From: a virus
Lineage: Duplodnaviria > Caudoviricetes
Length of the DNA: 64,000 nucleotides
Direction: 5' to 3' (one strand)
IMG/VR virus record: IMGVR_UViG_3300031853_000001
Location: 64,001 to 128,000 of that record
Every line of letters begins with the position of its first letter. Position 1 is the stretch's first letter. Of this stretch, positions 2,559 through 62,215 are shown in pieces. The notes below the pieces were generated by a model. That model worked only from the letters and a program-made list of their open reading frames with translations, was not told where the DNA came from and did not search any database. Both the position numbers and the translations under genes were made by a program.

Positions 2559-2588
2559 AAATATAGAAAAGAAAAGGAGTTATTGGTT

Positions 2589-9732: not shown

Positions 9733-9930
9733 ATGAGTATAAAAGAAAAATTGCAATACTTTTCTGACCACGGTATGTCAGTTACATACATAGCGAAAAA
9801 AATGAATATTTCGCCGCCGACGCTTACAAAATGGTTAAATGGTCAAAAGGGTATTACACACAAAAATGAAGAATTACTTTATTCCACTCTAAAAGAAATA
9901 GCGAAAGATTTTTCGTTAATATTGGAGTGA
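9733..9930 (+). CDS. small XRE-type HTH protein
   Basis: GMSVTYIAKKMNISPPTLTKWLNG. Confidence 0.75.
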   Translation: MSIKEKLQYFSDHGMSVTYIAKKMNISPPTLTKWLNGQKGITHKNEELLYSTLKEIAKDFSLILE

Positions 9931-10832
9931 GAACAATGGGAAATCTTATTGATTTAACAGGAAAAAAATTTGGCCGTTTGACAGTTTTAGAACGAGATTT
10001 TTCTAAAGAAAGAGTATATTGGATTTGTAAATGTCAATGTGGAAATTTAAAATCTATTCGTTCAGATAGTTTAAAAAATGGGGCAATTCAATCTTGCGGA
10101 TGTTTATGGAAAGAACGAATAAGAGAAAATAATAACATAGATTTAATAAATCAACAATTTGGGAAATTACTTGTAAAAGAAAAAATTATTATTAATAATA
10201 AAACTAAATGGAGATGTTTGTGTAATTGTGGAAAAGAAGTTTTTGTTTCTACTGGTAATTTAACAAGTGGGCATACTAAAAGTTGTGGATGCTTACAAAA
10301 AGAAATTGTTCATAATAATAATTTTATTGATTTAACTGGTCAAACTTTTGGAAAATTAAAAGTATTAGAATTAACAGGAAAGAAAAATAATCGTACTATG
10401 TGGCGTTGTCAATGTGAATGTGGAAATATTATTGAAACTCGTGGCACCGATTTACGTTATAGAAAAAATAGAAGTTGTGGTTGTGTTGAATCTAAGGGAG
10501 AACAAATTATTACTAATTTATTAATACAAAATAATGTTTCTTTTGTCACCCAAAAAAGATTTGCTACGTGTAGAAATCCAGAAACCAACGCTCAATTAAT
10601 TTTTGATTTTTATATTAATGATTCTTTCTTGTTAGAGTATGATGGTGTTCAGCATTATCAAACATCAAGCGGATGGAATAATGAACAACATTTAAATTAT
10701 ACTAAGTTGCATGATAATATAAAAAATCAATGGTGTTGTGAAAATAATATACCATTAAAAAGAATTCCTTATTGGGAATTAGATAGTATAACAATAGAAA
10801 ATATAATGGATAATACATTTTTAATCACTTGA
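9927..10832 (+). CDS. free-standing homing-endonuclease-like protein (3x DLTGxxFGxL/CxCxCG repeats + Vsr/DUF559-like nuclease)
   Basis: repeated Cys modules, SKGE, FDFYI..LLEYDGVQH, LKRIPYW; paralogue of 31983-32696 and 48146-49105. Confidence 0.8.
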   Translation: MRTMGNLIDLTGKKFGRLTVLERDFSKERVYWICKCQCGNLKSIRSDSLKNGAIQSCGCLWKERIRENNNIDLINQQFGKLLVKEKIIINNKTKWRCLCNCGKEVFVSTGNLTSGHTKSCGCLQKEIVHNNNFIDLTGQTFGKLKVLELTGKKNNRTMWRCQCECGNIIETRGTDLRYRKNRSCGCVESKGEQIITNLLIQNNVSFVTQKRFATCRNPETNAQLIFDFYINDSFLLEYDGVQHYQTSSGWNNEQHLNYTKLHDNIKNQWCCENNIPLKRIPYWELDSITIENIMDNTFLIT

Positions 10833-10888: not shown

Positions 10889-11770
10889 ATGAGTGATATT
10901 AAGCTTCATTTTTTTGTGGGCATTAGTGCGAGTGGGAAAACGACTAAGGCCTATGAAATGTTTGGTAAAAATTCTGTTATTATAGATTCAGATAATGTTC
11001 GTGCACGAATTTGTCCTGGTGGCGCTACTGACCAGTCTATGAACGCCCGTGTTTTTGAACATATGTATCGTGAAACCTGTGAGTGTCTTTCTCGCGGAGT
11101 TTCTGTTTGCTATGTTGCTACTAATCTATCTGCGAAGCGTCGTATTTCCTTTCTAAAAAATATCCGTAAGCGTTTTCCTGGCCTGGAATGTATCTGCTAC
11201 ATTATTAACACTCCTATTGAAACTTGTTATGCGCGAAACGATAGCCGTTCTCGCACCGTTCCTGATTATGTAATCGGACGCCAGCTTCAGTCTTTTCAAA
11301 TTCCGTGCGAAGCAGAAGGATGGTCGCGGATTGAGGTTGTTGATAACTTTGATAAAAAAGAAGAATATCGTGAAGATACTGTAATGAAGGTTATGAAGTT
11401 TGGCTCCCAACAGAATAAACATCATTCTTTAAGTTTATTTGACCATTGCACTAAGTGCGGCCGCCTTGCTGAAGATATGGGATATGGGGATACTTTGCAG
11501 CAGGCCGCGTATATTCACGATTATGGTAAAATCCATACTGCTGTGCGCTGGCCCGATAAGGATGATGACCTTCATTATCCTAATCATGCACAGGTTGGAG
11601 GTTATCTCGCTTTGAATATGGGTTATTCCCTATATGTCGCACAATTAGTTGGAGCACATATGTATCCCTATGCTTCCGCGCGCGAACAGGAAGTTTGGCG
11701 TGTTCGTTTTGGTGAAAAACTTTGGAATGATGTTCTAAAATTACATAAACTAGATTTGGAGGCCCACTAA
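10889..11770 (+). CDS. polynucleotide kinase (P-loop) fused to HD phosphoesterase (Pnkp-like)
   Basis: GISASGKT, DSDNVR, ATNL...RR, RNDSR; C-terminal H...HDYGK...H...H...D. Confidence 0.85.
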   Translation: MSDIKLHFFVGISASGKTTKAYEMFGKNSVIIDSDNVRARICPGGATDQSMNARVFEHMYRETCECLSRGVSVCYVATNLSAKRRISFLKNIRKRFPGLECICYIINTPIETCYARNDSRSRTVPDYVIGRQLQSFQIPCEAEGWSRIEVVDNFDKKEEYREDTVMKVMKFGSQQNKHHSLSLFDHCTKCGRLAEDMGYGDTLQQAAYIHDYGKIHTAVRWPDKDDDLHYPNHAQVGGYLALNMGYSLYVAQLVGAHMYPYASAREQEVWRVRFGEKLWNDVLKLHKLDLEAH

Positions 11771-14242: not shown

Positions 14243-14587
14243 ATGGCTAATTATGCTAATCAATTAACTATAAAATTAGAGCTTGATAAAACATTATATC
14301 AAGGCGGTGATAATCGCGGCGAAATGTATACGAAAAAAGTATATTGGAAATATAAAAAAGCCGCAATGAAAAAATTAACCGGCAATGGTTATAAACTTTG
14401 GGATTATTTATATTCTTGGGCAGGTGCTAATTCTTTTGATTTTTCACCAAAGAAAATTACAGATGAAATTGGAATTAGCGATAAAGGAATTCGTCTTGCT
14501 AGACAAGAATTAGAACGTTTTAATTGTTTAAAATTAGAAGAAGGAAAAAATAATATTTATATTTTTACTCCTGACGCAATCCTGTAA
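14243..14587 (+). CDS. winged-helix protein, replication-initiator-like
   Basis: LTGNGYKLWDYL...FSPKKITDEIGISDKGIRLARQEL; followed by iteron-like repeats. Confidence 0.5.
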   Translation: MANYANQLTIKLELDKTLYQGGDNRGEMYTKKVYWKYKKAAMKKLTGNGYKLWDYLYSWAGANSFDFSPKKITDEIGISDKGIRLARQELERFNCLKLEEGKNNIYIFTPDAIL

Positions 14588-14849: not shown

Positions 14850-15632
14850 ATGAATAAGCAAGAAATCTTCAATCATTTTTCTACAATAATTGACGAAATG
14901 ATTAACAATTCTCTTTTTTGGTCTACCTATTGGCAGCGTCCCTATGGTTTTGGTGATACCATAGACGGAAGCGATTATGACGAAATGCCTGCGCACATTT
15001 TAGTGTGTAGCGGTGCGACTCGTACTTGCCTTGTCGATGAAGACTACGATTGGGTTGTTAAGTTTGATGTTGAAGAAGATGCTTATGGTAGCGCTTGTGA
15101 GCGCGAAGAACGTATTTATGACGCGGCGAAGGCTTATGCTCTTGACCGCTATTTTGCGGAAGTAGTGTATCTTGGTCGCTATACGCGCGAAATTAACTTC
15201 TATGACATCTGCGACATTGAGCGTTGGTGTGATTTGTTTGATTATGACCCGAAGTATTTTGAACAGGCTTTTATGGAGAATGAGGAAAAGTTTGGGCCTA
15301 TTCGTCCTATTGTAATTTCTGTGCCGCTTTATGCCTATCGTAAGGCTACTGCTTATGATTGCGGGCCTGTTGATGCAGATAGTCGTGCTCGCGCGAAGAA
15401 GATTGCTAGTCCGCTTTATTCTCGCAATATTGCGGTTGCAACTGCTTTCATCCGCGAATTTGGTATGGATGAATATAAGGCTTTTTCTGAATTTGGTCTT
15501 GAATGGGATATTAACGACCTTCATTGTAATAATGTTGGGGAAATTGACGGACATTTTTGTATAATTGATTACTCTGGATACCACGACCCTTATTATGATG
15601 ACGAAGATGAAGATTGGAAGAAAGGAGATTAA
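14850..15632 (+). CDS. protein-kinase-like fold protein
   Basis: SGATR..VVKF, E..IY, catalytic-loop-like DLHCNNVG and IIDY. Confidence 0.55.
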   Translation: MNKQEIFNHFSTIIDEMINNSLFWSTYWQRPYGFGDTIDGSDYDEMPAHILVCSGATRTCLVDEDYDWVVKFDVEEDAYGSACEREERIYDAAKAYALDRYFAEVVYLGRYTREINFYDICDIERWCDLFDYDPKYFEQAFMENEEKFGPIRPIVISVPLYAYRKATAYDCGPVDADSRARAKKIASPLYSRNIAVATAFIREFGMDEYKAFSEFGLEWDINDLHCNNVGEIDGHFCIIDYSGYHDPYYDDEDEDWKKGD

Positions 15633-15640
15633 AAATAATA

Positions 15641-16450
15641 ATGGACCATTCTGATATTGGTGCCCGTATGAAGGCATACGAAAATTGTTATAGACTATAT
15701 CTACCGAAGCGCCAGGCCGTTATTGTCCGTATTGATGGCAAGGCGTTCCACAGCTTTACAAAGGGTTTTAACCGACCATATGATACTGTATTCGCAAAGG
15801 CTATGTGGGAAACCGCAAAGCAGCTTTGTGAAAATATTGGTGGTTGTGTGTTTGGTTATACACAAAGCGACGAAATTTCCCTTGTTCTGGTAGATTATAA
15901 GAATATTAACACCGAGCCTTGGTTTGGCAATAATCTACAAAAAATTGTAAGTATCAGCGCGAGTATGGCTACTTTCTTTTTTAGGCAGAATTTTATAAAC
16001 TCTATTGTAAAGCATGACCATCTTTCTCCAGAAGAGCAAAACGCTCATTTTAAAGCTTATGGAGAAAAAATGGCTGTATTTGATGCTCGTGCGTTTATTC
16101 TTCCACGAGAAGAAGTTTCTAATTATATTTACTGGCGGCAACTAGACTGCGTGCGAAATAGTATTCAACTTGCGGGCCAGACTTACTTCTCGCACAAGCA
16201 ACTTCAAAATAAGAATTGCGACCAGATTCAGGAAATGCTTTGGCAAGAGCACCAAGTAAATTGGTCTAAGTATCCTACTTGGTTTAAGAATGGTGTCGCT
16301 ATTTACAAGCAGCCACGAGAAATTTCTTACGCAAATGAAGATGGTTCCGCCGCGTGCGTAGTGCGAGATAAGTGGACTATTGACCTAGAAATGCCAATGG
16401 TTTCTCAAAATCCTGACTTTATTAATAAGTGGGTTATTTTTAAGGAGTAA
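15641..16450 (+). CDS. tRNA(His) guanylyltransferase Thg1 / TLP 3'-5' polymerase
   Basis: RIDGKAFHSFT, YTQSDEISL, FDAR, WRQLDCVRNSI. Confidence 0.95.
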   Translation: MDHSDIGARMKAYENCYRLYLPKRQAVIVRIDGKAFHSFTKGFNRPYDTVFAKAMWETAKQLCENIGGCVFGYTQSDEISLVLVDYKNINTEPWFGNNLQKIVSISASMATFFFRQNFINSIVKHDHLSPEEQNAHFKAYGEKMAVFDARAFILPREEVSNYIYWRQLDCVRNSIQLAGQTYFSHKQLQNKNCDQIQEMLWQEHQVNWSKYPTWFKNGVAIYKQPREISYANEDGSAACVVRDKWTIDLEMPMVSQNPDFINKWVIFKE

Positions 16451-42468: not shown

Positions 42469-42540
42469 GCCGTATTAGTTCAACGGTAGAATAATAGATT
42501 CGTAATCTAGATGCTTGTTCAAATCAAGTATGCGGCTCCA
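42469..42540 (+). tRNA. tRNA-Thr(CGT)
   Basis: gccgtat/atgcggc, loop ttcgtaa, very short variable loop, CCA. Confidence 0.8.
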
Positions 42541-45634: not shown

Positions 45635-46273
45635 ATGAATGGATATATTTATAAAATAATTAATAAAACCAATCAAAAAATATATATTGGTAAAACTTTA
45701 TATTCTATTGAAAAAAGATTTAAAGAGCATTTAAAAGATAGCAACAGAACAGAATATCAAGATAGACCACTATATAAAGCTATAAAAAAATATGGCGCAG
45801 AAAATTTTTCAATAGAATTAGTAGAAATAGCTCCAGTAGAAATATTATCAGAACGAGAAATTTATTGGATAAAATATTATAATAGTTATCATTATGGTTA
45901 TAATGCAACACAAGGTGGAGAAGGTAAATCATTATATGATTACAATTCTATTGTAGAACAATATAAACAAGGAAAACTTATAAAAACATTAGCAGAAGAT
46001 TTTGATTGCGATCCTAGTGTAATTAAAAAAGCTATTAAAAATTCTGGAATAGATACTCATATAAATGAAATTAAATCTAAACAAATTAAAATAAGTGCGT
46101 ATGATATAAAAAATCATCAATTAGTCCAAGAATTTTCTTCTCATAAAGAAGTAGGACAATGGCTTTTTGAAAATGGTTATACTCAATCTCAAAATTGGGA
46201 TAATATTTCTGCATCAATAGGCAGAGTAAAAAATGGTTTACGTCAATCTGCTTATGGATTTAATTGGAAATAA
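45635..46273 (+). CDS. GIY-YIG homing endonuclease with NUMOD1-like C-terminus
   Basis: GYIYKI.N..N.KIYIGKT, R...H, EREIYWI, GYN.T.GG, SAYGFNW. Confidence 0.9.
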   Translation: MNGYIYKIINKTNQKIYIGKTLYSIEKRFKEHLKDSNRTEYQDRPLYKAIKKYGAENFSIELVEIAPVEILSEREIYWIKYYNSYHYGYNATQGGEGKSLYDYNSIVEQYKQGKLIKTLAEDFDCDPSVIKKAIKNSGIDTHINEIKSKQIKISAYDIKNHQLVQEFSSHKEVGQWLFENGYTQSQNWDNISASIGRVKNGLRQSAYGFNWK

Positions 46274-48145: not shown

Positions 48146-49105
48146 ATGTCAAAATTTATTGATTTAACTGGACAGCAATTTGGAAGATGGTTAGTAAAAG
48201 AGAAATCTAGTAAAAAAACTTCTTATGGACAATATTGGATATGTGAATGCCAATGTGAAAAAAGAACTATCAAGGAAATTTGTGGGCGGTCTTTAAAACA
48301 GGGAGAATCTACAAATTGCGGTTGTTTAAAATATAAACATAAAATAGATTTAACGGGTAAAAAATTTGATTATTTATTATGCTTAAAACCTGGAGAAAGT
48401 ATTAAAAGAAATGATGGACGCTCTAAATCAACTTGGATTTGCAAATGTGATTGTGGTAAGATAATAACAATTCAAACAGAAAGCTTACGAAGTGGTCGAG
48501 CTCATAGTTGTGGTTGTAAAAATGCCGATCTTAGACGAGAAGATTTAACTGGCCAACGTTTTGGTAAACTAATAGCCATTAAGCCCGATTCTTCTCATTA
48601 TACATCTGGTGGGAATGCTTTATCTCGATGGGTTTGTCAATGTGACTGTGGTAATACTATTAGTGTAATAACGCAAGCTTTAAAAAGCGGAAATACTCAA
48701 TCTTGTGGTTGTTTAAATTCTAAAGGTGAAAGCCGTATTAAACAATGGTTATTAAAAAATAATATTATTTTTAAAGCTCAATATATTAATAAAGAAATGA
48801 AATATAATAATGGTAGTTATCCACGTTTTGATTTTGCTATTTTTAATGAGAAAAATAAATTACAATTTTTAATTGAGTATCAAGGCGATATTCATTATAT
48901 CTCTCATAAAAGTGGCTGGAATACTCCAGAAGCTCTGGAAAAAAGACAAAAATATGACGAAGAAAAACGTAATTTATGCAAAACTTTTCATATAAATTTA
49001 ATTGAAATTCCTTATTGGGAATTTGATAATATAGAAAACATTTTAAATCAACTGGTAAAACAGTATAAAATTAATACAGCAAAAATTATGGAAGAGCATG
49101 AGTAA
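48146..49105 (+). CDS. homing-endonuclease-like protein (3x Cys repeats + Vsr/DUF559-like)
   Basis: DLTG..FG, CxCxCG, SKGE, RFDFAI..LIEYQGDIH. Confidence 0.8.
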   Translation: MSKFIDLTGQQFGRWLVKEKSSKKTSYGQYWICECQCEKRTIKEICGRSLKQGESTNCGCLKYKHKIDLTGKKFDYLLCLKPGESIKRNDGRSKSTWICKCDCGKIITIQTESLRSGRAHSCGCKNADLRREDLTGQRFGKLIAIKPDSSHYTSGGNALSRWVCQCDCGNTISVITQALKSGNTQSCGCLNSKGESRIKQWLLKNNIIFKAQYINKEMKYNNGSYPRFDFAIFNEKNKLQFLIEYQGDIHYISHKSGWNTPEALEKRQKYDEEKRNLCKTFHINLIEIPYWEFDNIENILNQLVKQYKINTAKIMEEHE

Positions 49106-50060: not shown

Positions 50061-50136
50061 AATTCTGCTATAATAATATTGTAAAAAAGAAAAGCCCTAG
50101 TCCAGGGCTGACCAAATGAAAAGGAGATTTAAAATT

Positions 50137-51756
50137 ATGACTAATTTCAATCAGGTAGTTTCTAATTTTGTTGCTTCTCAGAATTCTTACCCTGTTCGTA
50201 AGAATATTAGCAAGGCTCACGCTTCTTCCTTTATCAATGCGATGAAGCAAGAGGATAACTTCAAGTATACCGAAAATGGTGCGGTAGCCAAGAAGTCTAC
50301 TATGTCCAAGCTATACGACCTATTTGCACTTGGCGGCTCCTATCGTTCTCGCACCGAGAGCGATTGTATCGTTCTTTTTAAGAACGCATATCAGGAGAAC
50401 CCTGCCTATGCTCTAAAGTGCCTATGGTATCTTCGTGATATTCTTGAGGGTCAGGGTGAGCGTCGTTTCTTCCGTGTTTGCTTAAAGTGGCTTGCTACCT
50501 ACGACAAGCAGGCTGTACTACGCAACCTTGATACCATTGCCCGTGATGGTTTCGGCCGCTGGGATGATCTGTTTGTCCTATTTGACACTCCTTGCGAGGA
50601 TGCTGTTATGAAGCTGATTGAAAATCAGCTAGTTAGCGACCTAAAGGCGTATCAGGCCGGTGCCGCAGTATCTCTACTTGGCAAGTGGATTCCTTCCGAG
50701 AACTCCTCTTCTGCCAAGACTAAGCATAATGCTCGTCGCATTATTGCTGCTCTTCACGTATCTCCTCGTGAGTATCGTAAGACTCTATCTGCTCTGCGTG
50801 AGCGTATCCACGTTGTAGAGCGTCTTATGTCCCAGAACCGTTGGGACGAGATTGATTTCTCTCATCTACCTTCTCGTGCTGGCCTGATCTATCGCAAGGC
50901 TTTCGAGCGTCGCGATATGATTCAGCAGAAGTATCGTGAGTTCGCGAAGGATACTTCTACCAAGGTAAATGCTGGTAAGCTATATCCTTACGACGTTGTG
51001 CGTGAGGCACAGAAGGTTATGCACTGTGATTCCTACTGGAATTATGGTTCTCGCGAACCTCGCCTAGACGACACCCAGCGTCTAATGGTTAATAAGTATT
51101 GGGATAACCTACGTAATGTTTTCCCTGCGGGTGAAAACTTTAACGCTATGGTTGTTTGCGATACTTCTAGCTCTATGCTAAATGGAGCAAGCAATACTGC
51201 TTCTCCTATGCAGGTTGCGGTATCTCTGGCAATGTATGCCGCAGAGCGTGCCAACGGTCCTTTCAAGAACCATTATATCAGTTTCAGCCGTCAGGCTCGT
51301 CTGGTAGAGGTTTTTGGTGCGGACTTCTGCGACAAGGTATCTCGTATCATCCGCTCCAATGTGTGCGAGAATACCAATCTTGAAAGTGTTTTCGACCTAG
51401 TGCTAAATACTGCTATGCAGTATCGCCTACCTCGTAACGCTATGCCTAAGACTCTTGTAGTCGTGTCCGATATGGAAGTAGATCGTTCTGCGGGTATTTC
51501 CAGTCATAAGGAAACCTTTATGGAGTCTATGCGTCGTAAGTGGGCTCAGAAGTGCGGCAACCGCTATGAGTTCCCTGACGTAGTGTTCTGGAATGTGTCT
51601 GCTCGCAACGATACTTTCCTAGACGATCCTAAGAGTGGCATTACTTACGTGTCTGGCTGCAGTCCTGTACTGTTTGAGCAGATTCTGTCTGGTAAGACGT
51701 CTATTGACCTTATGCTAGACAAGCTTAACGCTCCTCGCTACAAAGACATCTACTAA
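50137..51756 (+). CDS. DUF2828-family protein (TROVE/Ro60-like helical domain + vWA)
   Basis: TENGA...ST...DLF, LRD...GQGER, GRWDDL, SL..KW.P, MIDAS-like DTSSSM, TNL..VF, SDME, FWNV, VSG.SP; own promoter (50046) and terminator. Confidence 0.85.
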   Translation: MTNFNQVVSNFVASQNSYPVRKNISKAHASSFINAMKQEDNFKYTENGAVAKKSTMSKLYDLFALGGSYRSRTESDCIVLFKNAYQENPAYALKCLWYLRDILEGQGERRFFRVCLKWLATYDKQAVLRNLDTIARDGFGRWDDLFVLFDTPCEDAVMKLIENQLVSDLKAYQAGAAVSLLGKWIPSENSSSAKTKHNARRIIAALHVSPREYRKTLSALRERIHVVERLMSQNRWDEIDFSHLPSRAGLIYRKAFERRDMIQQKYREFAKDTSTKVNAGKLYPYDVVREAQKVMHCDSYWNYGSREPRLDDTQRLMVNKYWDNLRNVFPAGENFNAMVVCDTSSSMLNGASNTASPMQVAVSLAMYAAERANGPFKNHYISFSRQARLVEVFGADFCDKVSRIIRSNVCENTNLESVFDLVLNTAMQYRLPRNAMPKTLVVVSDMEVDRSAGISSHKETFMESMRRKWAQKCGNRYEFPDVVFWNVSARNDTFLDDPKSGITYVSGCSPVLFEQILSGKTSIDLMLDKLNAPRYKDIY

Positions 51757-51851: not shown

Positions 51852-52208
51852 ATGAACTATTACATTTATTTGGATGATGTGCGCGAAGATGATACTTGGT
51901 TTCGACAGCATTTGAATACCGAGCATTGGATTCCTTGTGTTGTTCGTTCTTATGAGGAAGTAATTCATATTCTTGACCATATGCAAGATTATATGGACAA
52001 GGATGAAGTGCTTATTCTCGACCTTGATCACGACCTTGGCGAAACTGAAGATGGTTACAATGAACTCGCGCACACAGGATATGATGTTTGTAAGTGGATG
52101 ATAGAAAATCATTTCCCTGCCTGCTATTTTCACATTCATAGCATGAACGCTAGTGGTTCTGCGAATATGCGACAACTTCTTACTCACTATGGCTATAAGG
52201 AGATTTAA
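51852..52208 (+). CDS. cyclic-phosphate-processing receiver-domain protein
   Basis: YLDDVR, LDLDHDLG, TGYDV.KW, IHSMN..G..NM. Confidence 0.8.
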   Translation: MNYYIYLDDVREDDTWFRQHLNTEHWIPCVVRSYEEVIHILDHMQDYMDKDEVLILDLDHDLGETEDGYNELAHTGYDVCKWMIENHFPACYFHIHSMNASGSANMRQLLTHYGYKEI

Positions 52209-52667
52209 TATGCTTTTAGATGAAAATAATGATAAAGAAAAGCTTTATAAAATTATTGATTTTCTAATAGAACAAATTAAAAATCTGCAAAGAACTAATT
52301 CTGAAATAAATGAACTTTTGAAAGAATCAATTTTTAGAAAATAATTTCTTGACTTTCTCCAAAAATTCTGATATAATTATTATAGTAAAAGGAAAGGAGA
52401 ATAACATAGTGGAAAAGTACAGACCTATTTATAGAGATATTCACGATTGGGCAATTTTGGACGAACGAACTATTCATGATTTTTCTGAAAACGAAACTCC
52501 TATTCACGTGGTAGAAGTTCTTATTGGAACTCTTCATTATGAGCATATAGATTTTAATCAGCATTATACTGAACATCGCACTCCTATTATTCGTTGGCTA
52601 ACTCGTAATGAATATGATTATCTTTGCGCGAATGAAGGCACCGTAATTTGGTAAGAAAGGATTAAAT

Positions 52668-53318
52668 ATGCGTAAGTACGAAAAAATTGAAACTCTATTT
52701 GCCCGCGATATGGAAGGCACTAAAAAGCTAATGCCGGGTATTTTTCGTGACCCGACTATTGAGTTTCTTCAGTATTGTGATTGGGTATGGACTGAGAAGA
52801 TAGACGGCACTAATATCCGCGTGTATTGGGATGGCCATAAGGTTACTTTTAGTGGCCGTACCGATAACGCAGTTATTCCCGCAGAACTTATCACTCGTCT
52901 AAATGAACTTTTTAGCGGTGAGACTAATGCTCAAATTTTTGAGCAGGCTTTTGGCGATAAGGAAGTTATTCTATTCGGTGAGGGCTATGGTCGTAAAATT
53001 CAGAAGGGCGGTGGCAAGTATATTGCCGATGGCGTTGATTTTATTCTATTTGACGTTCTAATTGGTGAGAATTATCAAGAACGTGAATGGGTTGAAAGCA
53101 CCGCCAAGATGTTTGGTATTAAGGTCGTCCCAATTGTGGGTGGCGGTTCGCTTGAAGACGCTGTAAATTATGTTAAGAAGCACCCTAATTCGATAATTGC
53201 GGAAGATGTACGAGAAATGGAAGGTATTGTATGTAGACCCGCTGTTGAGCTACGTGACCGTCGTGGTAATCGTATTATTGTAAAAATTAAGTGGGAAGAT
53301 ATAAAGGAGCTTATTTAA
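52668..53318 (+). CDS. Rnl2-like RNA ligase
   Basis: motif I EKIDGTN, LFGEGYG, FDV, EGIV, KIK. Confidence 0.85.
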   Translation: MRKYEKIETLFARDMEGTKKLMPGIFRDPTIEFLQYCDWVWTEKIDGTNIRVYWDGHKVTFSGRTDNAVIPAELITRLNELFSGETNAQIFEQAFGDKEVILFGEGYGRKIQKGGGKYIADGVDFILFDVLIGENYQEREWVESTAKMFGIKVVPIVGGGSLEDAVNYVKKHPNSIIAEDVREMEGIVCRPAVELRDRRGNRIIVKIKWEDIKELI

Positions 53319-53530
53319 TATGAATGGATTTTATAAAGTAAAAGTTAATAATTATGGAGAAAAACCCGAAGAATGGTCTGGTGTTGTTGTGGGTAACGAT
53401 GAAGGTGACCTTATGAACAAGGTTATGAAATATTATGGTCACGATAATGTAGAACAAATAAGCTTTTGGTTTGGAGAATTTTATGATAATGATGTCGTAG
53501 AATTTGACGATTTTAAGGATTGTCCATTAT

Positions 53531-53559
53531 TTGACTTTCACTAAAAATTTTGATATAAT
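53531..53559 (+). promoter_or_regulatory. sigmaA-type promoter of tRNA-Met/ncRNA unit
   Basis: TTGACT-17-TATAAT. Confidence 0.85.
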
Positions 53560-53590
53560 ATTTATACAAGGTGAGGGAACTCACCAATAA

Positions 53591-53663
53591 TGCGGAGTGG
53601 CCAAGTAGTTAAGGCAATTGGCTCATACCCAATAGATCAAGAGTGCAAATCTCTTCTCCGCAA
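53591..53663 (+). tRNA. tRNA-Met(CAT), CCA not encoded
   Basis: tgcggag/ctccgca, attgg-ctcatac-ccaat. Confidence 0.85.
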
Positions 53664-54640
53664 CTCAGCGCAAAAGGAGAGCAAGCTGTTACTCCGAGTG
53701 AACTTATCGGCGCTATATAAATAGGAAAAACCAATTAAATACAGTATTTTAAATGAAGTAATAACTGCCATAGAAGTCATGACCTATGATAGAAGACACT
53801 TCATTTAAAGCAACCGGTTGATTTGCGCAATTAAGTCGTTAGAAGCGACTAGAGGGAGAGACCCTGACTAATAAGCAAGTCCATTCTATGAAATGGTAAT
53901 GTCGAAAACCAATTAGTGTAAAGTAGCATACCTTACCAATAATAAGGAGAATCAGCGTAGCGAACTGAATTGGCGTACTGGAATTTGTTGTCCAGAGTAG
54001 GCATAAATCGAGCAGCAATGCGGTAATACCCGTGCACAGGTAGCTAAATTACCCTGGCTCACCAATTATTTTAGAAGATAAGACTTGAGCTTATCTCTGG
54101 CTATGAAGCGAGTGCCGTGCCGCAGATGCGGTGCTTAGTGGAGCCTATGTGGGTTTAGCGTGTCAACCACAATGCGGATAGGTATTAACCGAAAGAAAAC
54201 ACGCTTTAATGGCGCTTTATCCCAAGCCTTTTCGCGGCGGCGCTATAAGTACCAAAAGGTATTATTTAATACTGAGCGTGAAACTAAGAGGGAACTGAAG
54301 GCTGTGCCAAGGTGAAAGGCTAACAGTCCGAGTGATGACCGTTGAAGCCATTCGGTGCATAGTGGTGCCGTTAAAGCGATGGATGCATACATCGTCCACT
54401 TCATTTAATGACTTGATGCTTATCAAGCTAGAACTATCGAGGACGTGTGCGGTGGGAATGTTTGAGATTAGATGTAGATAGTTTAAGTATAGACTTGCGG
54501 TGCAAGCCTAATCAACTGGCGTTCCGCGGCCAGAATACTTTGCGGGCTTTATTGATTCGGGAGGAAGTGTCCGTAGATGAACTTCTCGGAGTAATCGCCA
54601 TAATCGAATCAGCCGTGCGGCTGGCATAATGCCGCAATAT
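53664..54640 (+). ncRNA. about 1-kb structured non-coding region with embedded tRNA-like domains
   Basis: no credible ORF; many hairpins; cloverleaf-like 53907-53975 (loop ccaataa) and ACCA-ending unit 54010-54064. Confidence 0.55.
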
Positions 54641-54760
54641 GGCACCGTAGTGCAAAGGTAAGCACGCCGGCCTTTGTGAGATAGGGTAAAGTGCAGTTCA
54701 ACTCTGCCGTCTCGCACCACAAGCCGGTGATGCTGGGTTCAAGTCCCGCCGGTGCTTCCA
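54641..54760 (+). tRNA. tRNA-Glu(TTC) interrupted by 44-nt mini-tRNA insert (54676-54719)
   Basis: removing the insert gives ccggc-cttt|caa-gccgg; CCA. Confidence 0.85.
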
Positions 54761-54763
54761 AGC

Positions 54764-54856
54764 AAAGAAAAGAGAAGCATAAATCTGATCAATTTATGAG
54801 ATAATGATGCCCTAACATCAAGTCTTTTCTTTAATAAATATTATTAGGGTGATATT
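54764..54856 (+). promoter_or_regulatory. HEG-leader pseudoknot motif, copy C
   Basis: aaagaaaaga-GAAGC-hairpin-GAGATAAT-GATG ccctaa CATC-aag-tcttttcttt; loop pairs ttaggg. Confidence 0.7.
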
Positions 54857-55498
54857 ATGAGTAGAAAATTAAGCCAACAACAATTTGAAGAAAGAGTATA
54901 TAAGACATTTGGAGATAAATATTCTGTAGTAAGTGAATATTTAGGTCAAAGAAAACCTATAACTTTACATTGTAATATACACAATATTGATTTTACAGCT
55001 ACTGCTGAATGTTTCATGAGACAAGCTAATGACACTCGCTCAAGTTGTCCAGAATGTACTGCAGAAAAACGAAGACAAGAAAATAATTCTGTAAAATGTG
55101 AATGTGCTTATTGTCATAAAATTTTTTATTTGTCTCAATCTAAAGCTAATAATTCTAAAAGTGGATTACATTTTTGTTGTAGAGAACATAAAGATTTAGC
55201 TCAAAGAATAGATAGCGGTGAACAATTCGATATAATGCGCCCGCCTCATTATAATGCAATAAAAAATGATACAGGAACAATTGGGACATATCGTATTTTA
55301 GCTTTTAGAAATTATCCCCATAAGTGCGCTGTTTGTAATTGGGACGAAGATGAAGATATATTACAAGTTCATCATATAGATGAAAATAGACAAAATAATT
55401 CTTTAACCAATTTAATTATTTTATGTCCTAATTGTCACGCAAAAATAACTTATGGGAAATATAAATTAATTGATCGAAAACAAATTATATTAAAATAA
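54857..55498 (+). CDS. HNH endonuclease
   Basis: CAVC...LQVHHIDENRQNN...NL..LCPNCH. Confidence 0.9.
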   Translation: MSRKLSQQQFEERVYKTFGDKYSVVSEYLGQRKPITLHCNIHNIDFTATAECFMRQANDTRSSCPECTAEKRRQENNSVKCECAYCHKIFYLSQSKANNSKSGLHFCCREHKDLAQRIDSGEQFDIMRPPHYNAIKNDTGTIGTYRILAFRNYPHKCAVCNWDEDEDILQVHHIDENRQNNSLTNLIILCPNCHAKITYGKYKLIDRKQIILK

Positions 55499-55511
55499 AA
55501 TTAAATAGGAG

Positions 55512-55995
55512 TTGTTGTATATGGCAATCCACGATAGAGCTTATACTCGTACAAAAAGTTGGACTAAGGCACTTCGTAAATACCACATTGATAGAGATAT
55601 TTCCGCAGGTAAATGGTGGCCTATGTACAATAATCTCCATCAATATGCTGATAATAAAATTCATTGTTCCTGTCCAATGTGTAGTGCTAAAACCAACAAC
55701 AAAAAGCGCAATGGGCCTCGTGGATGGGAACCTTCAAAAAATTGGTCTATTTCAGATCAAAAGAAAATTAATAGTATGGAAAGTCAAGTTGAGGAATTAA
55801 ATGATAACTTGGAATAATTTTAAATGTGATTTTCCGTATCATCGTATAGATAATTTTGGCGATTATAGTGAAATGTGGTGCGGACGATTAGAAAAATATA
55901 TTTCTAATTGTAATGATTGCCCATTTAACCAAAAAGAAAAAGAGATGCGTGAAGACCCCAATAATTATCAAAAATGGCTAAAATTACATAATTGA
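55512..55995 (+). other. two small Cys-containing hypothetical CDSs (55512-55817, 55801-55995)
   Basis: coupled ORFs; HCSCPMC motif. Confidence 0.55.
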
Positions 55996-56325
55996 CTTTT
56001 TCTAAAAATTATAGTATAATATATATAGTTAAGGGAAAGGAGATAAATTATTTATGAATTATCTGGATGATTTTCTTGTTGGCCCGCAGAGCGATGAATA
56101 TGATTGGTATTATGAAAATGAAATTCCTGATCCAGAATGGGACAGGAGATGTCGAGGATTGGATAAACTAATACTTGACAAGTAATAAAAATTATGTTAT
56201 AATATTTATAGAAACAAGGAAAGGATGATAATTGTGCGCTTTACGACTCGCAAGTCTCGTACTGTGTTTTCTTCTTCTTGGAGTCGCCGCAAGCAGGCAG
56301 AGATGCTTGATGAGTGGCAGATTTA

Positions 56326-56870
56326 AACGCCAGATTAGTTCAGCAAATTGCGGCCAATATTAATGGCGTTACCGCATTCCTTACTTATAGTTTGGAAGTA
56401 CAAAGGTTTTGAGTAATTGAACCGGTTAAATCAATGCTTGGCGCCGGGTCCACCCTACTGGGCTCGTAAACAAATCGCGGCCAATGGTGAGAAGCGCCAC
56501 CGCTATAAAGGAATGCCCCACGACGGGTTTCGTAAGTTATGTTGAAAGATATATACTAGCTTGGAATAAGCACACGCAAGAGTTGCTATAATGCGCAACA
56601 GAAAAATCCTTTATAATAGGTTAACCTACGGTCGGATGGGAGACGATAAACCCCTTTCAAGCAGTCTCTTTGGCGGTTGGACTTAAAATAAACCACCTAG
56701 GTCAGCAGGACTGATAACTATATATTATAGAAGCAATCTCTTTTATAATATATAGAAAACGCAGCCATAATCCTGTCGTTGCGGCGAACAACGATAAAAA
56801 TCGCTAGTAGCCCAGATACTTACTTAAAGGGTTTTCGCCGCGTTAATCTTGGTATCGGATTGCGGTTGTA
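56326..56870 (+). ncRNA. unassigned structured non-coding region
   Basis: long-range closing stems such as gcattcctt/aaggaatgc and gggttt/aaaccc; no ORF. Confidence 0.45.
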
Positions 56871-56871
56871 T

Positions 56872-57006
56872 CCACGCGTGGTGCAAATGGCGAGACACAG
56901 CGGACTTACGTAGGCCCAGTGGCTTGTTGGAGAGCAACACTCCTTCCTACGACCAAAATCCGCGACGCAAGATACATTGCTGGTTCAAATCCAGTCGCGT
57001 GGACCA
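56872..57006 (+). tRNA. tRNA-Leu(TAA) interrupted by 47-nt mini-tRNA insert (56909-56955)
   Basis: removing the insert gives gcgga-ctta|aaa-tccgc; long variable region, CCA. Confidence 0.87.
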
Positions 57007-57009
57007 TAT

Positions 57010-57086
57010 GAGTTTGTAACCGAATTGGCATAGGTACTTGGCTCAAACCCAAGGTTTTGTGGGTTCGACTCCCACCAAACTCACCA
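57010..57086 (+). tRNA. tRNA-Leu(CAA), short variable region
   Basis: cttgg-ctcaaac-ccaag, CCA. Confidence 0.88.
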
Positions 57087-57154
57087 AAATTTATATTTCG
57101 AGTGCGAATTATAATAATTTGAATTCGATGTTATTACTTATCTAATGTAAGGAG

Positions 57155-57925
57155 GTGGTTAATATGCCACTAAAATATAAATTAGAAGAAGTATTAACAG
57201 AAAATTCTCCTGTTACTAGAAAAGTTTTAAAAGATTATTTAGCAAAATATAATGTTTTAGAATATAAATGTGCAATATGCGATAACAGAGGAGAATGGAA
57301 TGGAGTTTCTTTAACATTACAAATAGACCATATTAATGGTATAAGAGATGATAATAGAAAAGAAAATCTTCGTTGGCTATGCCCGAATTGTCATTCTCAA
57401 ACTGATACTTTTACTGGGAAAAATAAAACTAAAAAAGAAGTTGTTAATTTTACAGTAGAAGAAGCTATTAAAGCATTACAACAAACTGAAAATGTAAATC
57501 AAGCAACCAAATTAATCGGCTGTGCGCAAGGTGGAGCAAATTGGATTAGAGTAAATGATATTAAAAAAAAGTATGGAATTATTCAATCTGGGGATTTAAA
57601 GAAAGAAGAAAAACAAAAGTTTAAAGAAAATCATATTAATGCGAAACCAATTAACTCTATTAAATTATGTAAAAAATGCGGCCGTCCGTTATCGACAAAA
57701 GATGCTGAATACTGTCAAACTTGTATACACGAATTTCAACGAAAATGTGAATGGCCTTCTCGCGAAGAACTTAAAAAATTAATTCGCTCTACACCTTTTT
57801 TACAAATAGGTAAAAAATATAATGTAAGCGATAATGCTGTAAGAAAATGGTGCTTAAATTATGGTTTGCCATCTAAAAAGATGGAAATAAAAGCAATTTC
57901 AGATGAAGATTGGAATAATATTTGA
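57155..57925 (+). CDS. HNH endonuclease with C-terminal HTH
   Basis: CAIC...LQIDHING...DNRKENLRWLCPNCHSQT; VSDNAVRKW. Confidence 0.9.
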   Translation: MVNMPLKYKLEEVLTENSPVTRKVLKDYLAKYNVLEYKCAICDNRGEWNGVSLTLQIDHINGIRDDNRKENLRWLCPNCHSQTDTFTGKNKTKKEVVNFTVEEAIKALQQTENVNQATKLIGCAQGGANWIRVNDIKKKYGIIQSGDLKKEEKQKFKENHINAKPINSIKLCKKCGRPLSTKDAEYCQTCIHEFQRKCEWPSREELKKLIRSTPFLQIGKKYNVSDNAVRKWCLNYGLPSKKMEIKAISDEDWNNI

Positions 57926-58185
57926 CTTTCTTTTAAAATTATAGTATAATAATTATAGTAAAGAGAAAGGATTTATATGAAAGCAAAGTGTAAATGCAGT
58001 TGTATTTGGGACTATTCTTGTAATGATATTAAAGTTGAACCTGACGGTCACGATGTTGTAGTTACTTTATATTGCCCTAATTGTGGGCATCAGCTTTTTG
58101 CTTATAGCCCTAATGACCTAATAGAAAAAGTATCTCCTTCTTATGTTGATACTCATTGTTTTTCAAAATACACTTGGAATAATAC

Positions 58186-58464: not shown

Positions 58465-59117
58465 GTCACTCCTCGCTAATGCGACAAGTCGCGTTAACAT
58501 TTGTTTGTTAGCTACTGTTGGAAAACGCGACTTTAAAATACAAAGAAGCAACAGTAAATAGCTCAAACCGTATGTTGAGACTATCGTAACTATCACATTC
58601 TAGGAGTCCTGACTCGTTATTGGACTTAATACTCAACGGAGTTGGCGCCCAAACAAATCCTAGAATGTATATGGTATCAAGTGAAGAGCCTTCTCGTGGC
58701 GATACTGATTTCGACTAATCTTCACAAAATATTAAAGCGTGCTTTTCCTTGCTGTACACTTGTTGAAAAGCCAAATGTTCCCGTATGAGAATACGCAGGT
58801 TATACCTGTATATTGAAATCCCATAAGACGTCACAAAGGAATGGATAGAAATTACAATGGGCCATTCAGAAAGTAGAACACTTTAATATTTGACTTTTTC
58901 TGAAAATTCTGGTATAATAATTACAGAAACAAGGAAAGGACAAAATAATGAAGATACTTGTTGTAAATAAAGATGAGAAAATACAATTAATTCATCTCCT
59001 AAAACAAGAAATACGCAAACCTGGTTGTCCTTATGAATTACTTACTATTTTAGAAAAACTTAGTCCTGGAGACTATGAATATCTTTTTACAACTATGAAA
59101 TAAAAGAAAGGAAGTAG

Positions 59118-59693
59118 ATACTCCATTTAATAAAATGGTTGAACCAAGTGAAGAAGAGTTAACCACTCTGCTTGGGCTATCTAAATAACAGCCATACGAT
59201 TTAGCGGGATACTACTAAATCGCGGCCACGAAATCAGTAATGATTAGTGATAAGGAGAAACTCTTAATGTTAAGGATAGGCGCTTGGTTATTCGCTAACA
59301 AAAACTTGGCTCCTTGCGGCGTCGTAATAGAAAGCAGATTGAGCAGATTTGCCGAACCCAGAAAAGACTTTAAGGTGGCAGTTAAAGGGACTCTGGGAAA
59401 GCCATAAGACGTTTGGTGTCGTTGAAACCTAGAAATAGGATATAAGCAAGGTTCACAGATAAAGTAGCCTAAAACGACAATGATTCTAATAAGTAATTTA
59501 ATTAGAATAATGTGCTGAATGGTTTAGGTGAAATTTGGGAGTAATCAGTCTCCCCGTTGCTAGCCAAAAGGCAGGATGAAGAAGTTAAAGGGTCGCTACC
59601 TTTGGCTCAGCCTTCATCTTCAACGTGGTTGAATATGTTAGAAGGATAATACAAGTACGGCGAAGGTCGCAACGGTTTTATTAAATGGGGTAT
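59118..59693 (+). ncRNA. 576-nt large structured RNA, ROOL-like
   Basis: 23-bp terminal stem atactccatttaataaaatggtt/aacggttttattaaatggggtat; size and tRNA-cluster context fit ROOL; family not verified. Confidence 0.6.
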
Positions 59694-61464: not shown

Positions 61465-61538
61465 AGTCCGTTAGTTTAACAGTAAAATATAACCCTGTCA
61501 CGGTTAAGTTACGAGGGCAGCACTCGTACGGACTGCCA
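61465..61538 (+). tRNA. tRNA-Asp(GTC)
   Basis: taacc-ctgtcac-ggtta, G73, CCA; atypical T loop ggcagca. Confidence 0.85.
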
Positions 61539-61662: not shown

Positions 61663-62215
61663 CGGGTTGTAGCGCAGTTTGGTAGCGCGCCTCGCTTGGG
61701 AAAAGCGATTTGTGCTTAATTATTATGTTAGACATTACTCAACAAAAAGGAACGATTACAGAATTACGATGTATTTTAGATTTAACTAATTTGGGAATAC
61801 GATGTTTAGTTCCTGTAGATGAAAGTTCTAAATATGATGTAGTAGCAGATTTAAATGGTACTTTTATTAGAATTCAATGTAAAACAGCTTGTTGGGCTAA
61901 AGATACCGTTCAAGAAAAAGTAGCCTTTGAAATAGATACTTGTCGAAGTACAACAAATACTAAAACTACTACTCATTATAAGTATTCTGCTAATGAAATT
62001 GATTATTTTTATACATGGTTTGAAGGACAAGGTTACTTAGTCTCCATTAAAGAAGCAAAAGGTTTAACTTTTAGATGGCGATATGAATATCCTTCTACCA
62101 ATCAAAAACAAGGTATTCATATCGCAGAATTATATAAGACTGAGGAGGTTTTAAAAGCACTCTAAAATTTTCCTGGACGAGGAGGCCGCAGGTTCAAATC
62201 CTGCCTGCCCGACCA
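61663..62215 (+). tRNA. tRNA-Pro(TGG) split by an ORF-bearing insert (about 61699-62174)
   Basis: 5' half cgggttg..cctcg-cttg; 3' half gga-cgagg..ctgcccg-ACCA; rejoined loop cttggga. Confidence 0.88.
61725..62165 (+). CDS. PD-(D/E)XK endonuclease inside the tRNA-Pro insert (I-Ssp6803I-like family)
   Basis: KGTITE, P....YDVV.D..G.FIRIQCKT, Y...EIDYF. Confidence 0.85.
   Translation: MLDITQQKGTITELRCILDLTNLGIRCLVPVDESSKYDVVADLNGTFIRIQCKTACWAKDTVQEKVAFEIDTCRSTTNTKTTTHYKYSANEIDYFYTWFEGQGYLVSIKEAKGLTFRWRYEYPSTNQKQGIHIAELYKTEEVLKAL

Follow-up and report, generated by a model that had tools for sequence, protein, structure and literature searches.

To our knowledge, bacteria and their viruses are limited to self-splicing tRNA introns, and protein-dependent tRNA splicing is thought of as a hallmark of archaea and eukaryotes. 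Group I introns occupy tRNA-Leu(UAA) genes in cyanobacteria, plastids and some phages. RNase P and RNase Z excise embedded tRNA-like RNAs, as in mitochondrial tRNA punctuation and the release of MALAT1 mascRNA, and in bacteriophage T4 the anticodon-loop damage caused by PrrC is healed by Pnkp and sealed by Rnl1. The closest precedent in phages is a set of 'enigmatic' introns in the anticodon loops of Lak megaphage tRNAs, of which it was written that the intron 'may itself encode a tRNA' and for which no mechanism was proposed (Devoto et al. 2019, PMC6784885; Fig. 4, Table S6). Full-text literature searches returned this report as the only near neighbor, and no description of introns delimited by tRNA ends or of splicing by RNase P and a ligase. 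Here we describe a 44-nt, tRNA-shaped insert in the anticodon loop of a tRNA-Glu(UUC) gene, located in a 64,000-nt stretch of phage DNA (hereafter, the window) that comprises bases 64001-128000 of the single 180,932-bp IMG/VR record IMGVR_UViG_3300031853_000001. Sequence comparisons with related phages lead us to propose, at roughly even confidence, that the insert belongs to a family of tRNA-derived, protein-dependent introns that occupy anticodon loops of phage tRNAs and that, as in the original prediction made from this DNA, would be excised by tRNA-processing nucleases and resealed by a phage ligase.

CheckV rates the record as complete, matches to tail and tail-fiber PHROGs mark it as a tailed phage, and nearly all of its approximately 25 tRNA genes lie inside the window. 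For comparison we used related IMG/VR phage genomes (G001-G003 and G005) and loci of relatives found via the neighboring ligase gene (L-numbers; G001 = L021, G002 = L023, G003 = L019, and G005 = L010, or IMGVR_UViG_3300033463_004585; G001 and G003 are complete). The interrupted tRNA-Glu gene is matched by Rfam model RF00005 at 54641-54757 with 44.8 bits (E 2.6e-07; gathering cut-off 29 bits), and in this alignment 47 nt replace 3 model positions in the anticodon loop. ARAGORN misses both mini-intron-split tRNAs of the window in a default run; with introns allowed, it calls a gene at 54641-54760 with a 44-nt intron, places the boundary 2 bases off and assigns the label Val(cac), a parse that we rejected on synteny and intact orthologs. 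Relatives share a syntenic tRNA series, Met-Glu-(Ala)-Leu(taa)-Leu(caa)-Leu(tag)-Asn, and the intact Glu genes in this series have the loop CTTTCAA in 4 of 4 cases (L003 5939-6013, L007 3053-3127, L013 11920-11994, L008 6922-6997). That loop, a canonical 7-nt loop with U33 and a purine at position 37, is obtained from the window only by removing 54676-54719, and BLAST homology to L003 and L013 covers the 5' exon and ends exactly at 54675. The original prediction had placed a 44-nt insert in a complete cloverleaf and had parsed the loop as cttt/caa, split between nucleotides 35 and 36. The Rfam match and the ARAGORN intron call uphold the former, and the uninterrupted alleles of relatives, together with the BLAST stop, confirm the latter. 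The split gene is the sole copy of Glu(UUC) found in the genome, and the same 44-nt insert is present in L005, L017 and L010/L018.

The insert is built as the acceptor/T half of a tRNA followed by a short tail (Table 1). A 7-bp acceptor stem, a T arm and a terminal ACCA had been recognized at the outset; the geometry table reproduces all three and extends the gcag/ctgc T stem by a T.C mismatch pair. In the minimum-free-energy fold the insert's terminal stem and free tail are retained, with the insert helix stacked straight on the anticodon stem and with CUU(U) and (A)CCACAA unpaired. Only 1 of 500,000 shuffles of the insert reproduced this geometry, which excludes a chance origin. As judged from its sequence, the insert has features of a bacterial RNase P substrate (a 7+5 bp stack, a 7-nt loop and ACCA), and the bare 44-mer falls below recognition by the Rfam tRNA model.

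Could the insert belong to a known intron type, whether self-splicing (group I or II), self-cleaving (a small ribozyme) or of the archaeal/eukaryal bulge-helix-bulge (BHB) kind? We regard this as extremely improbable. A related phage does carry a group I intron in the loop of its tRNA-Leu(UAA), and this intron (L010 17418-17723, RF00028 50.6 bits) served as our positive control. However, 44 nt is far below the core size of a group I or II intron, no ribozyme or intron family in Rfam matched positions 52000-58000 (E up to 1), and the insert alone had no match to any Rfam family (E up to 10). The 3-nt bulges around a 4-bp helix that define a BHB are absent, a search of the genome for a tRNA splicing endonuclease (tRNA_int_endo, PF01974), RtcB, a Lactamase_B_2 nuclease or a CCA-adding enzyme found none of them, and the phage's tRNAs are bacterial in style with an encoded CCA. 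The initial judgment that the insert is neither a group I/II nor a BHB intron thus agrees with its size, with the Rfam searches and with the stacking of its helix on the anticodon stem.

The Glu insert is not a solitary case. Seven distinct inserts were found, two of them in the window (Glu and Leu) and five in related IMG/VR phages (Table 1); no cultured phage with the element was detected when window positions 54000-55000 were compared by blastn to 50,697 phage records. All seven, although unrelated in sequence, follow a common template: a 7-bp acceptor stem, a linker of 9-41 nt, a T arm of 5+7+5 nt abutting the 3' strand of the acceptor, and a 4-nt tail, which is NCCA in six inserts and ACTA in the remaining one. 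Pairs were counted with a fixed-geometry script; a MAFFT alignment of the inserts, in which the 3' parts were right-aligned and the 5' acceptor strands misplaced, was used neither for these counts nor for a covariance model. The acceptor cells are paired in 48 of 49 cases and the T-stem cells in 31 of 35; with the 3' strands reassigned between inserts, the averages drop to 26.5 (at most 36) and 19.4 (at most 25), respectively. Each acceptor position shows two to four pair types across the seven inserts. The last T-stem pair is always G-C, corresponding to G53-C61 of tRNA, and in the T loop a C is kept at the position of tRNA C56 and is followed by A, although the loop sequence deviates from TTCRA in some members. 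The 9-15-nt linkers have no common sequence.

Three further G001 candidates were left out of these statistics. For two of them (L021 10952-11101, 'Lys?', tail GCCA; L021 5761-5902, 'Gln?', tail GCAA) the register of the T arm or acceptor could not be fixed by eye or with RNAfold, and the third (L021 5648-5757, with a 27-nt 'intron') is probably a false call. The ARAGORN labels for the relatives' split genes (Thr, Arg, Ala and Gln) were rejected on synteny, intact orthologs and the agreement between the two Ile inserts. We also considered a bias toward host tRNAs with U34 and rejected it as indistinguishable from the base rate (9 of the 25 tRNAs of the genome); Asn(GUU) is an exception to it.

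Every insert starts at base 1 of the inner acceptor stem and ends at the last base of the 4-nt tail. In three cases (Glu, Asn and Ile) the boundaries were set without reference to structure, and in all three the insert begins at inner base 1 and ends at the A of NCCA. The Glu boundary follows from the loop of the intact orthologs and from the BLAST break, and that of the G002 Asn insert from the syntenic Asn(gtt) genes of the window, L003 and L010. The Ile boundary follows from two very different inserts lodged in near-identical exons, which yield the same anticodon only if each insert runs from the first base of the helix to the tail; ARAGORN parses one of these split Ile genes as Thr and the other as Arg. 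The position within the loop varies (32/33, 34/35 or 35/36) and the flanking bases are unconserved; therefore, recognition must read the insert and not the host tRNA. When the insert is taken out exactly, a canonical loop of 7 nt with U33 and A37 results in every case.

The two Ile inserts also connect the short elements to whole tRNAs. The 76-nt insert of the G005 tRNA-Ile is a complete cloverleaf (RF00005, 47.8 bits) with the loop GUCUAGC and the anticodon CUA, and ARAGORN also calls it, under the label 'Pyl'; it is a candidate amber-suppressor tRNA located inside another tRNA. Free-standing tRNA(CUA) genes occur in L008 and in L011/L012. The 74-nt Ile insert of G003 is degenerate (22 bits) and keeps an acceptor stem, a TTCAAAT loop and ACCA; its acceptor differs from that of the G005 insert by compensatory changes (GATGAAG/CTTCATC in one, CACGAAG/CTTCGTG in the other). 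In the 44-50-nt inserts the D and anticodon arms are gone entirely. What is always kept across this size series is the acceptor/T half with its tail, and the acceptor/T half of a tRNA suffices for RNase P and RNase Z.

Selection on the inner structure, evident from this covariation, and the complete tRNA(CUA) of G005, recognized by two programs, would also suit a situation in which the inner mini-tRNA is the functional product (a decoy or cofactor and, in G005, a suppressor tRNA) and the outer tRNA is a scaffold whose halves stay unjoined. Excision by RNase P and RNase Z without rejoining is established elsewhere, in mascRNA and mitochondrial punctuation, and the phage has other tRNA-derived oddities as well as a TROVE/DUF2828-like gene. 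We nonetheless consider this quite unlikely. Exact removal always restores a canonical loop and an anticodon that the phage set otherwise lacks (Glu UUC, Leu UAA), the 9-15-nt linkers lack the shared sequence a common product would lead one to look for, and a short-linker descriptor scan of the whole 180,932-bp genome matched only at the two inserts and at no free-standing mini-tRNA.

The second split gene of the window, a tRNA-Leu(UAA) located 2 kb downstream, repeats the design of the Glu gene with an insert of unrelated sequence (Table 1). ARAGORN labels it Leu(caa), which we rejected on synteny and intact orthologs; no other gene for Leu(UAA) exists in the genome. An empty site is provided by L013, in which 14369-14399 and 14399-14444 align to window positions 56878-56908 and 56955-56999, and the boundary is ambiguous by one A (34/35 or 35/36). 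The acceptor stem of the window's Leu(UAA) is perfectly paired and differs in sequence from that of the intact L013 allele. The ortholog of this split gene in L010 (17364-17789) contains instead the 349-nt group I intron, placed after CTT (34/35); the same Leu loop is thus held by two intron classes in related phages.

Presence and absence of the inserts vary among otherwise related tRNA clusters. In the window Glu and Leu are split and Ile is intact; in G003 Leu and Ile are split and Glu is intact. The Leu insert is identical at 47 of 47 positions in the window, L015/L019 and L008/L016, and the L008 exons have diverged outside the anticodon arm. Similarly, window positions 54514-54855, which span the Glu gene, its insert and short flanks, are 98% identical to L010, compared to approximately 72% for the flanks and the neighboring ligase gene. 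This island stops two bases before a free-standing HNH endonuclease gene that begins 97 nt after tRNA-Glu and is a candidate homing partner. A second HNH gene comes after the Leu(UAA)-Leu(CAA) pair, and its L019 ortholog likewise follows the split Leu. In L010 the split Glu gene has an HNH gene next to it, as does the split Asn gene in L013. The pattern is that of a homing element with co-conversion tracts, with the link to HNH itself made tentative by how common these genes are across the tRNA regions. At the DNA level, then, the insert is probably a mobile and largely selfish insertion that spreads by gene conversion with the aid of free-standing HNH endonucleases.

The tRNA region and its surroundings hold additional free-standing endonuclease genes of homing type. 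A GIY-YIG gene occupies 45635-46273, and the gene at 48146-49105 is HNH-type (PHROG HNH/homing endonuclease families; in Pfam, only DUF2726) and has a paralogue detected by tblastn at 9927-10832. A third tRNA of the window, Pro(UGG) at 61663-62215, is split by a 476-nt anticodon-loop insert whose boundary is ambiguous within GGG. Nearly all of this insert is occupied by an ORF (61710-62165, 151 aa) for a PD-(D/E)XK endonuclease (PF11645, 73 bits). The insert is closed at its ends by GGAAAA/TTTTCC, lacks a tRNA-like arm and matched neither group I nor any other Rfam family. Intact Pro alleles are present in G001-G003.

Selfish DNA of this kind might simply sit in a dispensable tRNA gene, tolerated and with no excision at the RNA level. 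Phages can often do without their tRNAs, relatives have intact alleles, HNH genes are dense in the tRNA region, and the window's own tRNA-Pro is broken by an endonuclease ORF that has no recognizable splicing apparatus. Against such a dead gene, which we find distinctly improbable, stand the compensatory changes that keep both outer and inner stems paired across diverged phages. In the Glu anticodon stem, a C-G pair of the window corresponds to T-A in the interrupted alleles of L005 and L017 (window to L005/L017, C-G to T-A), and in the interrupted Ile alleles acceptor pair 3:70 changes from T-A (G005) to A-T (G003). As these changes in the Glu and Ile exons show, the interrupted alleles are still under tRNA constraint. 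In addition, the boundaries always coincide with mature-tRNA ends, and a DNA parasite needs no RNA fold, NCCA tail or G53-C61 pair.

These comparisons bear on what had first been suggested for the insert. Relatives show no decay of its structure, with stems kept by compensatory changes, and the proposal of an intron class has held up to the extent that the insert is truly intron-like, is one of a class that recurs, has mature-tRNA ends as its boundaries and is not a decayed insertion. The alternative suggestion, an anticodon-masked precursor that evades anticodon nucleases, found no support: a spliced tRNA would be exposed like any other, and a mobile selfish element fits better with the alternation of split and intact alleles, with the islands of high identity and with the HNH genes nearby.

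How might such an element be removed? In the scheme that we propose, the precursor tRNA would fold so that the mini-tRNA caps the anticodon stem, and host RNase P would cut 5' of inner base 1, leaving exon 1 with a 3'-OH. A 3'-end endonuclease, either of the RNase Z/BN type acting after CCA or an enzyme of unrecognized type, would then cut after the 4-nt tail and leave exon 2 with a 5'-phosphate. Finally, an ATP-dependent RNA ligase of the phage (Rnl2-like or Rnl1-like) would join the exons to give the loop CUUUCAA; the joined Glu exons would read ...GGCCUUU followed directly by CAAGCCGG... We favor the RNase P/Z route because the element keeps exactly what RNase P and RNase Z recognize, because its boundaries fall at tRNA ends, and because there is no ribozyme or BHB machinery. 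A broader claim, to which we give somewhat less than even weight, is that phage tRNAs may be spliced by a third route, in which the intron is itself a tRNA or mini-tRNA, end-processing enzymes cut and a T4-type ligase joins, with an origin in whole nested tRNAs, a later reduction to the smallest module that RNase P/Z recognize, and a spread between phage tRNA genes aided by free-standing HNH endonucleases.

The phage encodes candidate enzymes for the last of these steps. The two RNA ligases and the polynucleotide kinase that the original prediction had named were located as an Rnl1-like gene, an Rnl2-family gene and a kinase-HD fusion, Pnk-HD (Table 1). The Rnl2-family protein consists of the nucleotidyltransferase domain only and its gene lies 1.3 kb upstream of the split tRNA-Glu. 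From their family matches, the Rnl1-like and Rnl2-like proteins are candidate sealing enzymes and Pnk-HD is a candidate RNA end-healing enzyme. Homologues of Rnl1 and Pnk-HD are present in G001 and G003, both of which bear inserts; the idea that G003 might splice without Rnl1 was dropped when a protein search gave a full-length homologue where the family search had given none. A Thg1-like tRNA 5'-end repair (3'-5') polymerase encoded at 15614-16450 (PF04446, 111 bits; phrog_4717, E 1.5e-86) adds to an unusually rich tRNA repair set. Beside the ligase/tRNA cluster, at 50116-51756, lies the gene for a TROVE/Ro60-like protein of 546 aa (phrog_850 'RNA-binding protein', E 3e-120), which combines DUF2828, DUF7788 and a VWA-like region and may act on the phage's tRNA-derived RNAs.

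Several points count against excision by RNase P and an RNase Z-type enzyme with resealing by a phage ligase. The 3' cut is the weakest step of the scheme. In most bacterial pathways exonucleases trim precursors that have an encoded CCA, and exon 2 would be lost in this way; in Bacillus, CCA acts as an inhibitor of RNase Z, and cutting after CCA is known for some RNase Z/BN enzymes only (Thermotoga, E. coli RNase BN). The ACTA member (L021 15851-15895) would be cut one to three bases early by an RNase Z blind to tails other than CCA; the tail of this member suggests a 4-nt ruler rather than a reading of CCA and would oppose a strict CCA dependence. The ligase and kinase genes also occur in L003 and L007, whose examined tRNAs are intact, and are thus compatible with splicing but non-discriminating. 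The tRNA-Pro insert, which has no tRNA shape, implies either a more general splicing activity or the toleration of insertions in dispensable tRNAs. Lastly, the 25-30-nt leader of the Lak introns would survive a pure RNase P cut.

Some of these points would be accommodated by a dedicated, so far unrecognized phage or host endonuclease that reads the end of the helix and makes one cut at the first helix base and another 4 nt beyond the last, after which Pnk-HD would heal and the Rnl1-like ligase seal the ends, as in T4 repair of anticodon-nuclease damage. This is a serious rival, if an unlikely one. A full heal-and-seal kit (Pnk-HD, Rnl1-like and Rnl2-like) is encoded and is conserved in G001 and G003; a 4-nt tail that is kept even as ACTA fits a ruler better than recognition of CCA; the tRNA-Pro insert and the leader-bearing Lak introns also need an activity other than RNase P; and many ORFs of the genome have no family match. 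However, no gene was identified as a candidate for it, and it leaves unexplained the T arm, the G53-C61 pair, the 7+5 bp stack, NCCA and the one full tRNA, all of which are RNase P/Z determinants.

The tRNA region holds additional RNA features. Two tRNA genes missed by ARAGORN in its default run were found by Rfam, Thr(CGU) at 42469-42540 (52.0 bits) and Asp(GUC) at 61465-61538 (45.8 bits); the Asp(GUC) gene has an unusual T loop, GGCAGCA, which is also the T loop of the G001 Leu mini-intron. A full-length ROOL RNA (RF03087, 315 bits) lies within the region at 59120-59688, and a drum RNA (RF02958, 70.8 bits) at 54098-54209, 430 nt upstream of the split tRNA-Glu. The interval between the drum RNA and tRNA-Glu (54210-54640) has few ORFs, is relatively GC-rich and is 80-98% identical in relatives (98% to L019 over 54548-54610); it might represent a further structured RNA or serve as a signal for processing. 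An intergenic repeat of approximately 50 nt (Table 1) is present in many copies across the tRNA region of the window and of all relatives, as seen in BLAST self- and cross-matches, and is probably a promoter/terminator or a recombination module.

Table 1. Split tRNAs, tRNA-shaped inserts and associated genes and repeats of the window and its relatives
Feature	Sequence	Position	Strand	Details
tRNA-Glu(UUC) 5' exon	window	54641-54675	+	tRNA positions 1-35; last loop bases CTTT
Mini-intron, tRNA-shaped, 44 nt	window	54676-54719	+	between anticodon positions 35 and 36
tRNA-Glu(UUC) 3' exon	window	54720-54760	+	positions 36-76; begins CAA; CCA encoded
Glu insert, acceptor stem	window	54676-54682 / 54709-54715		GTGAGAT/GTCTCGC, 7/7 paired, two G-U
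Glu insert, linker	window	54683-54691		9 nt
Glu insert, T stem	window	54692-54696 / 54704-54708		TGCAG/CTGCC, 4/5 paired (T.C mismatch)
Glu insert, T loop	window	54697-54703		TTCAACT
Glu insert, tail	window	54716-54719		ACCA
tRNA-Leu(UAA) 5' exon	window	56872-56908	+	ARAGORN with introns; 93.5% to intact Leu(taa) L013 14369-14399
Mini-intron, 47 nt	window	56909-56955	+	CGTAGGC/TCCTACG, 6/7 paired; T arm TGGAG-AGCAACA-CTCCT; tail ACCA
tRNA-Leu(UAA) 3' exon	window	56956-57006	+	ARAGORN with introns; L013 alignment
Asn(GUU) insert	G002, L023	1570-1619		50 nt; loop 34/35
Ile(UAU) insert	G005, L010	3401-3476		76 nt; loop 34/35
Ile(UAU) insert	G003, L019	4550-4623		74 nt; loop 34/35
Thr(UGU) insert	G001, L021	15851-15895		45 nt, tail ACTA; loop 35/36
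Leu(UAA) insert	G001, L021	17135-17183		49 nt; loop 32/33
Rnl1-like RNA ligase, 380 aa	window	2583-3725	+	PF09511 58-59 bits; T4 Rnl1 2c5u residues 29-281, E 3.6e-15
Polynucleotide kinase (AAA_33) fused to HD domain (Pnk-HD)	window	10889-11770	+	
Rnl2-family RNA ligase, 216 aa	window	52668-53318	+	PF09414 66.7 bits; T4 Rnl2 1s68/2hvq E 4e-07
Free-standing HNH endonuclease gene, 213 aa	window	54857-55498	+	Pfam HNH 29.1 bits, DUF723, PHROG HNH families
Free-standing HNH endonuclease gene, 256 aa	window	57155-57925	+	Pfam HNH_3 28.6 bits; phrog_10822 E 5e-38
Copies of ~50-nt repeat	window	52349-52398, 53528-53579, 55992-56041, 56172-56225, 57916-57971, 58884-58940		

If correct, the proposed excision and ligation would represent a new and very economical splicing principle, in which nothing but a tRNA top-half shape marks the intron, and would give a housekeeping role to phage RNA ligases, so far known as repair enzymes only. 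With its gradation of sizes, from the complete tRNA of G005 down to 44 nt, the family amounts to a deletion analysis done by nature of the requirements of the processing enzymes, and the design could be used as a compact, programmable RNA excision-ligation module. Standard finders miss the split genes, so that phage tRNA repertoires, including code-switching suppressor tRNAs, are under-counted.

Like archaeal and eukaryal tRNA introns, which rely on a splicing endonuclease plus RtcB or Trl1, the mini-introns are short, would depend on proteins and lie in or near the anticodon loop, with archaeal introns also occurring at non-canonical positions; unlike them, they occur in a phage and bacterial setting and have neither a BHB motif nor a gene for a splicing endonuclease or RtcB. 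The group I introns of tRNA-Leu(UAA) occupy the same tRNA and loop as the second insert of the window, and group I introns and, probably, the mini-introns are mobile and often found with homing endonucleases, but the group I intron is a self-splicing ribozyme of at least 200 nt, whereas the mini-introns have no catalytic core or Rfam match. In T4 repair, too, a phage ligase and kinase act on a break in an anticodon loop, and homologous genes are present here. T4, however, deals with one host-inflicted break bearing a cyclic phosphate and a 5'-OH, whereas two programmed cuts would here remove 44 nt and, if made by RNase P and RNase Z, would already leave a 3'-OH and a 5'-phosphate, so that healing would be unneeded.

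The Lak introns resemble the family described here in several respects: they are short and not self-splicing, interrupt phage tRNA genes in the anticodon loop, contain a tRNA-like module, have no Rfam match, and are identical across cohorts and polymorphic for presence. They differ in size (79-114 nt, compared to a minihelix of mostly 44-50 nt), in having a conserved 25-30-nt hairpin leader that ends at about AUUAAA and no NCCA, as read from the Table S6 sequences, and in a 5' splice site that is not inner base 1, whereas the inserts here run exactly from base 1 to CCA; the 181-kb phage that carries them is also unrelated. The Glu insert, with no leader and an ACCA end, thus departs from the Lak layout and shares with it only the tRNA-like module. 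In mitochondrial punctuation and mascRNA, as in the proposed scheme, a tRNA-shaped element in a longer transcript sets both cut sites through the shape of its acceptor and T arm. The flanks stay apart in those systems, whereas here they are tRNA halves that would need to be ligated in the anticodon loop; by analogy, a similar working of the inserts is plausible.

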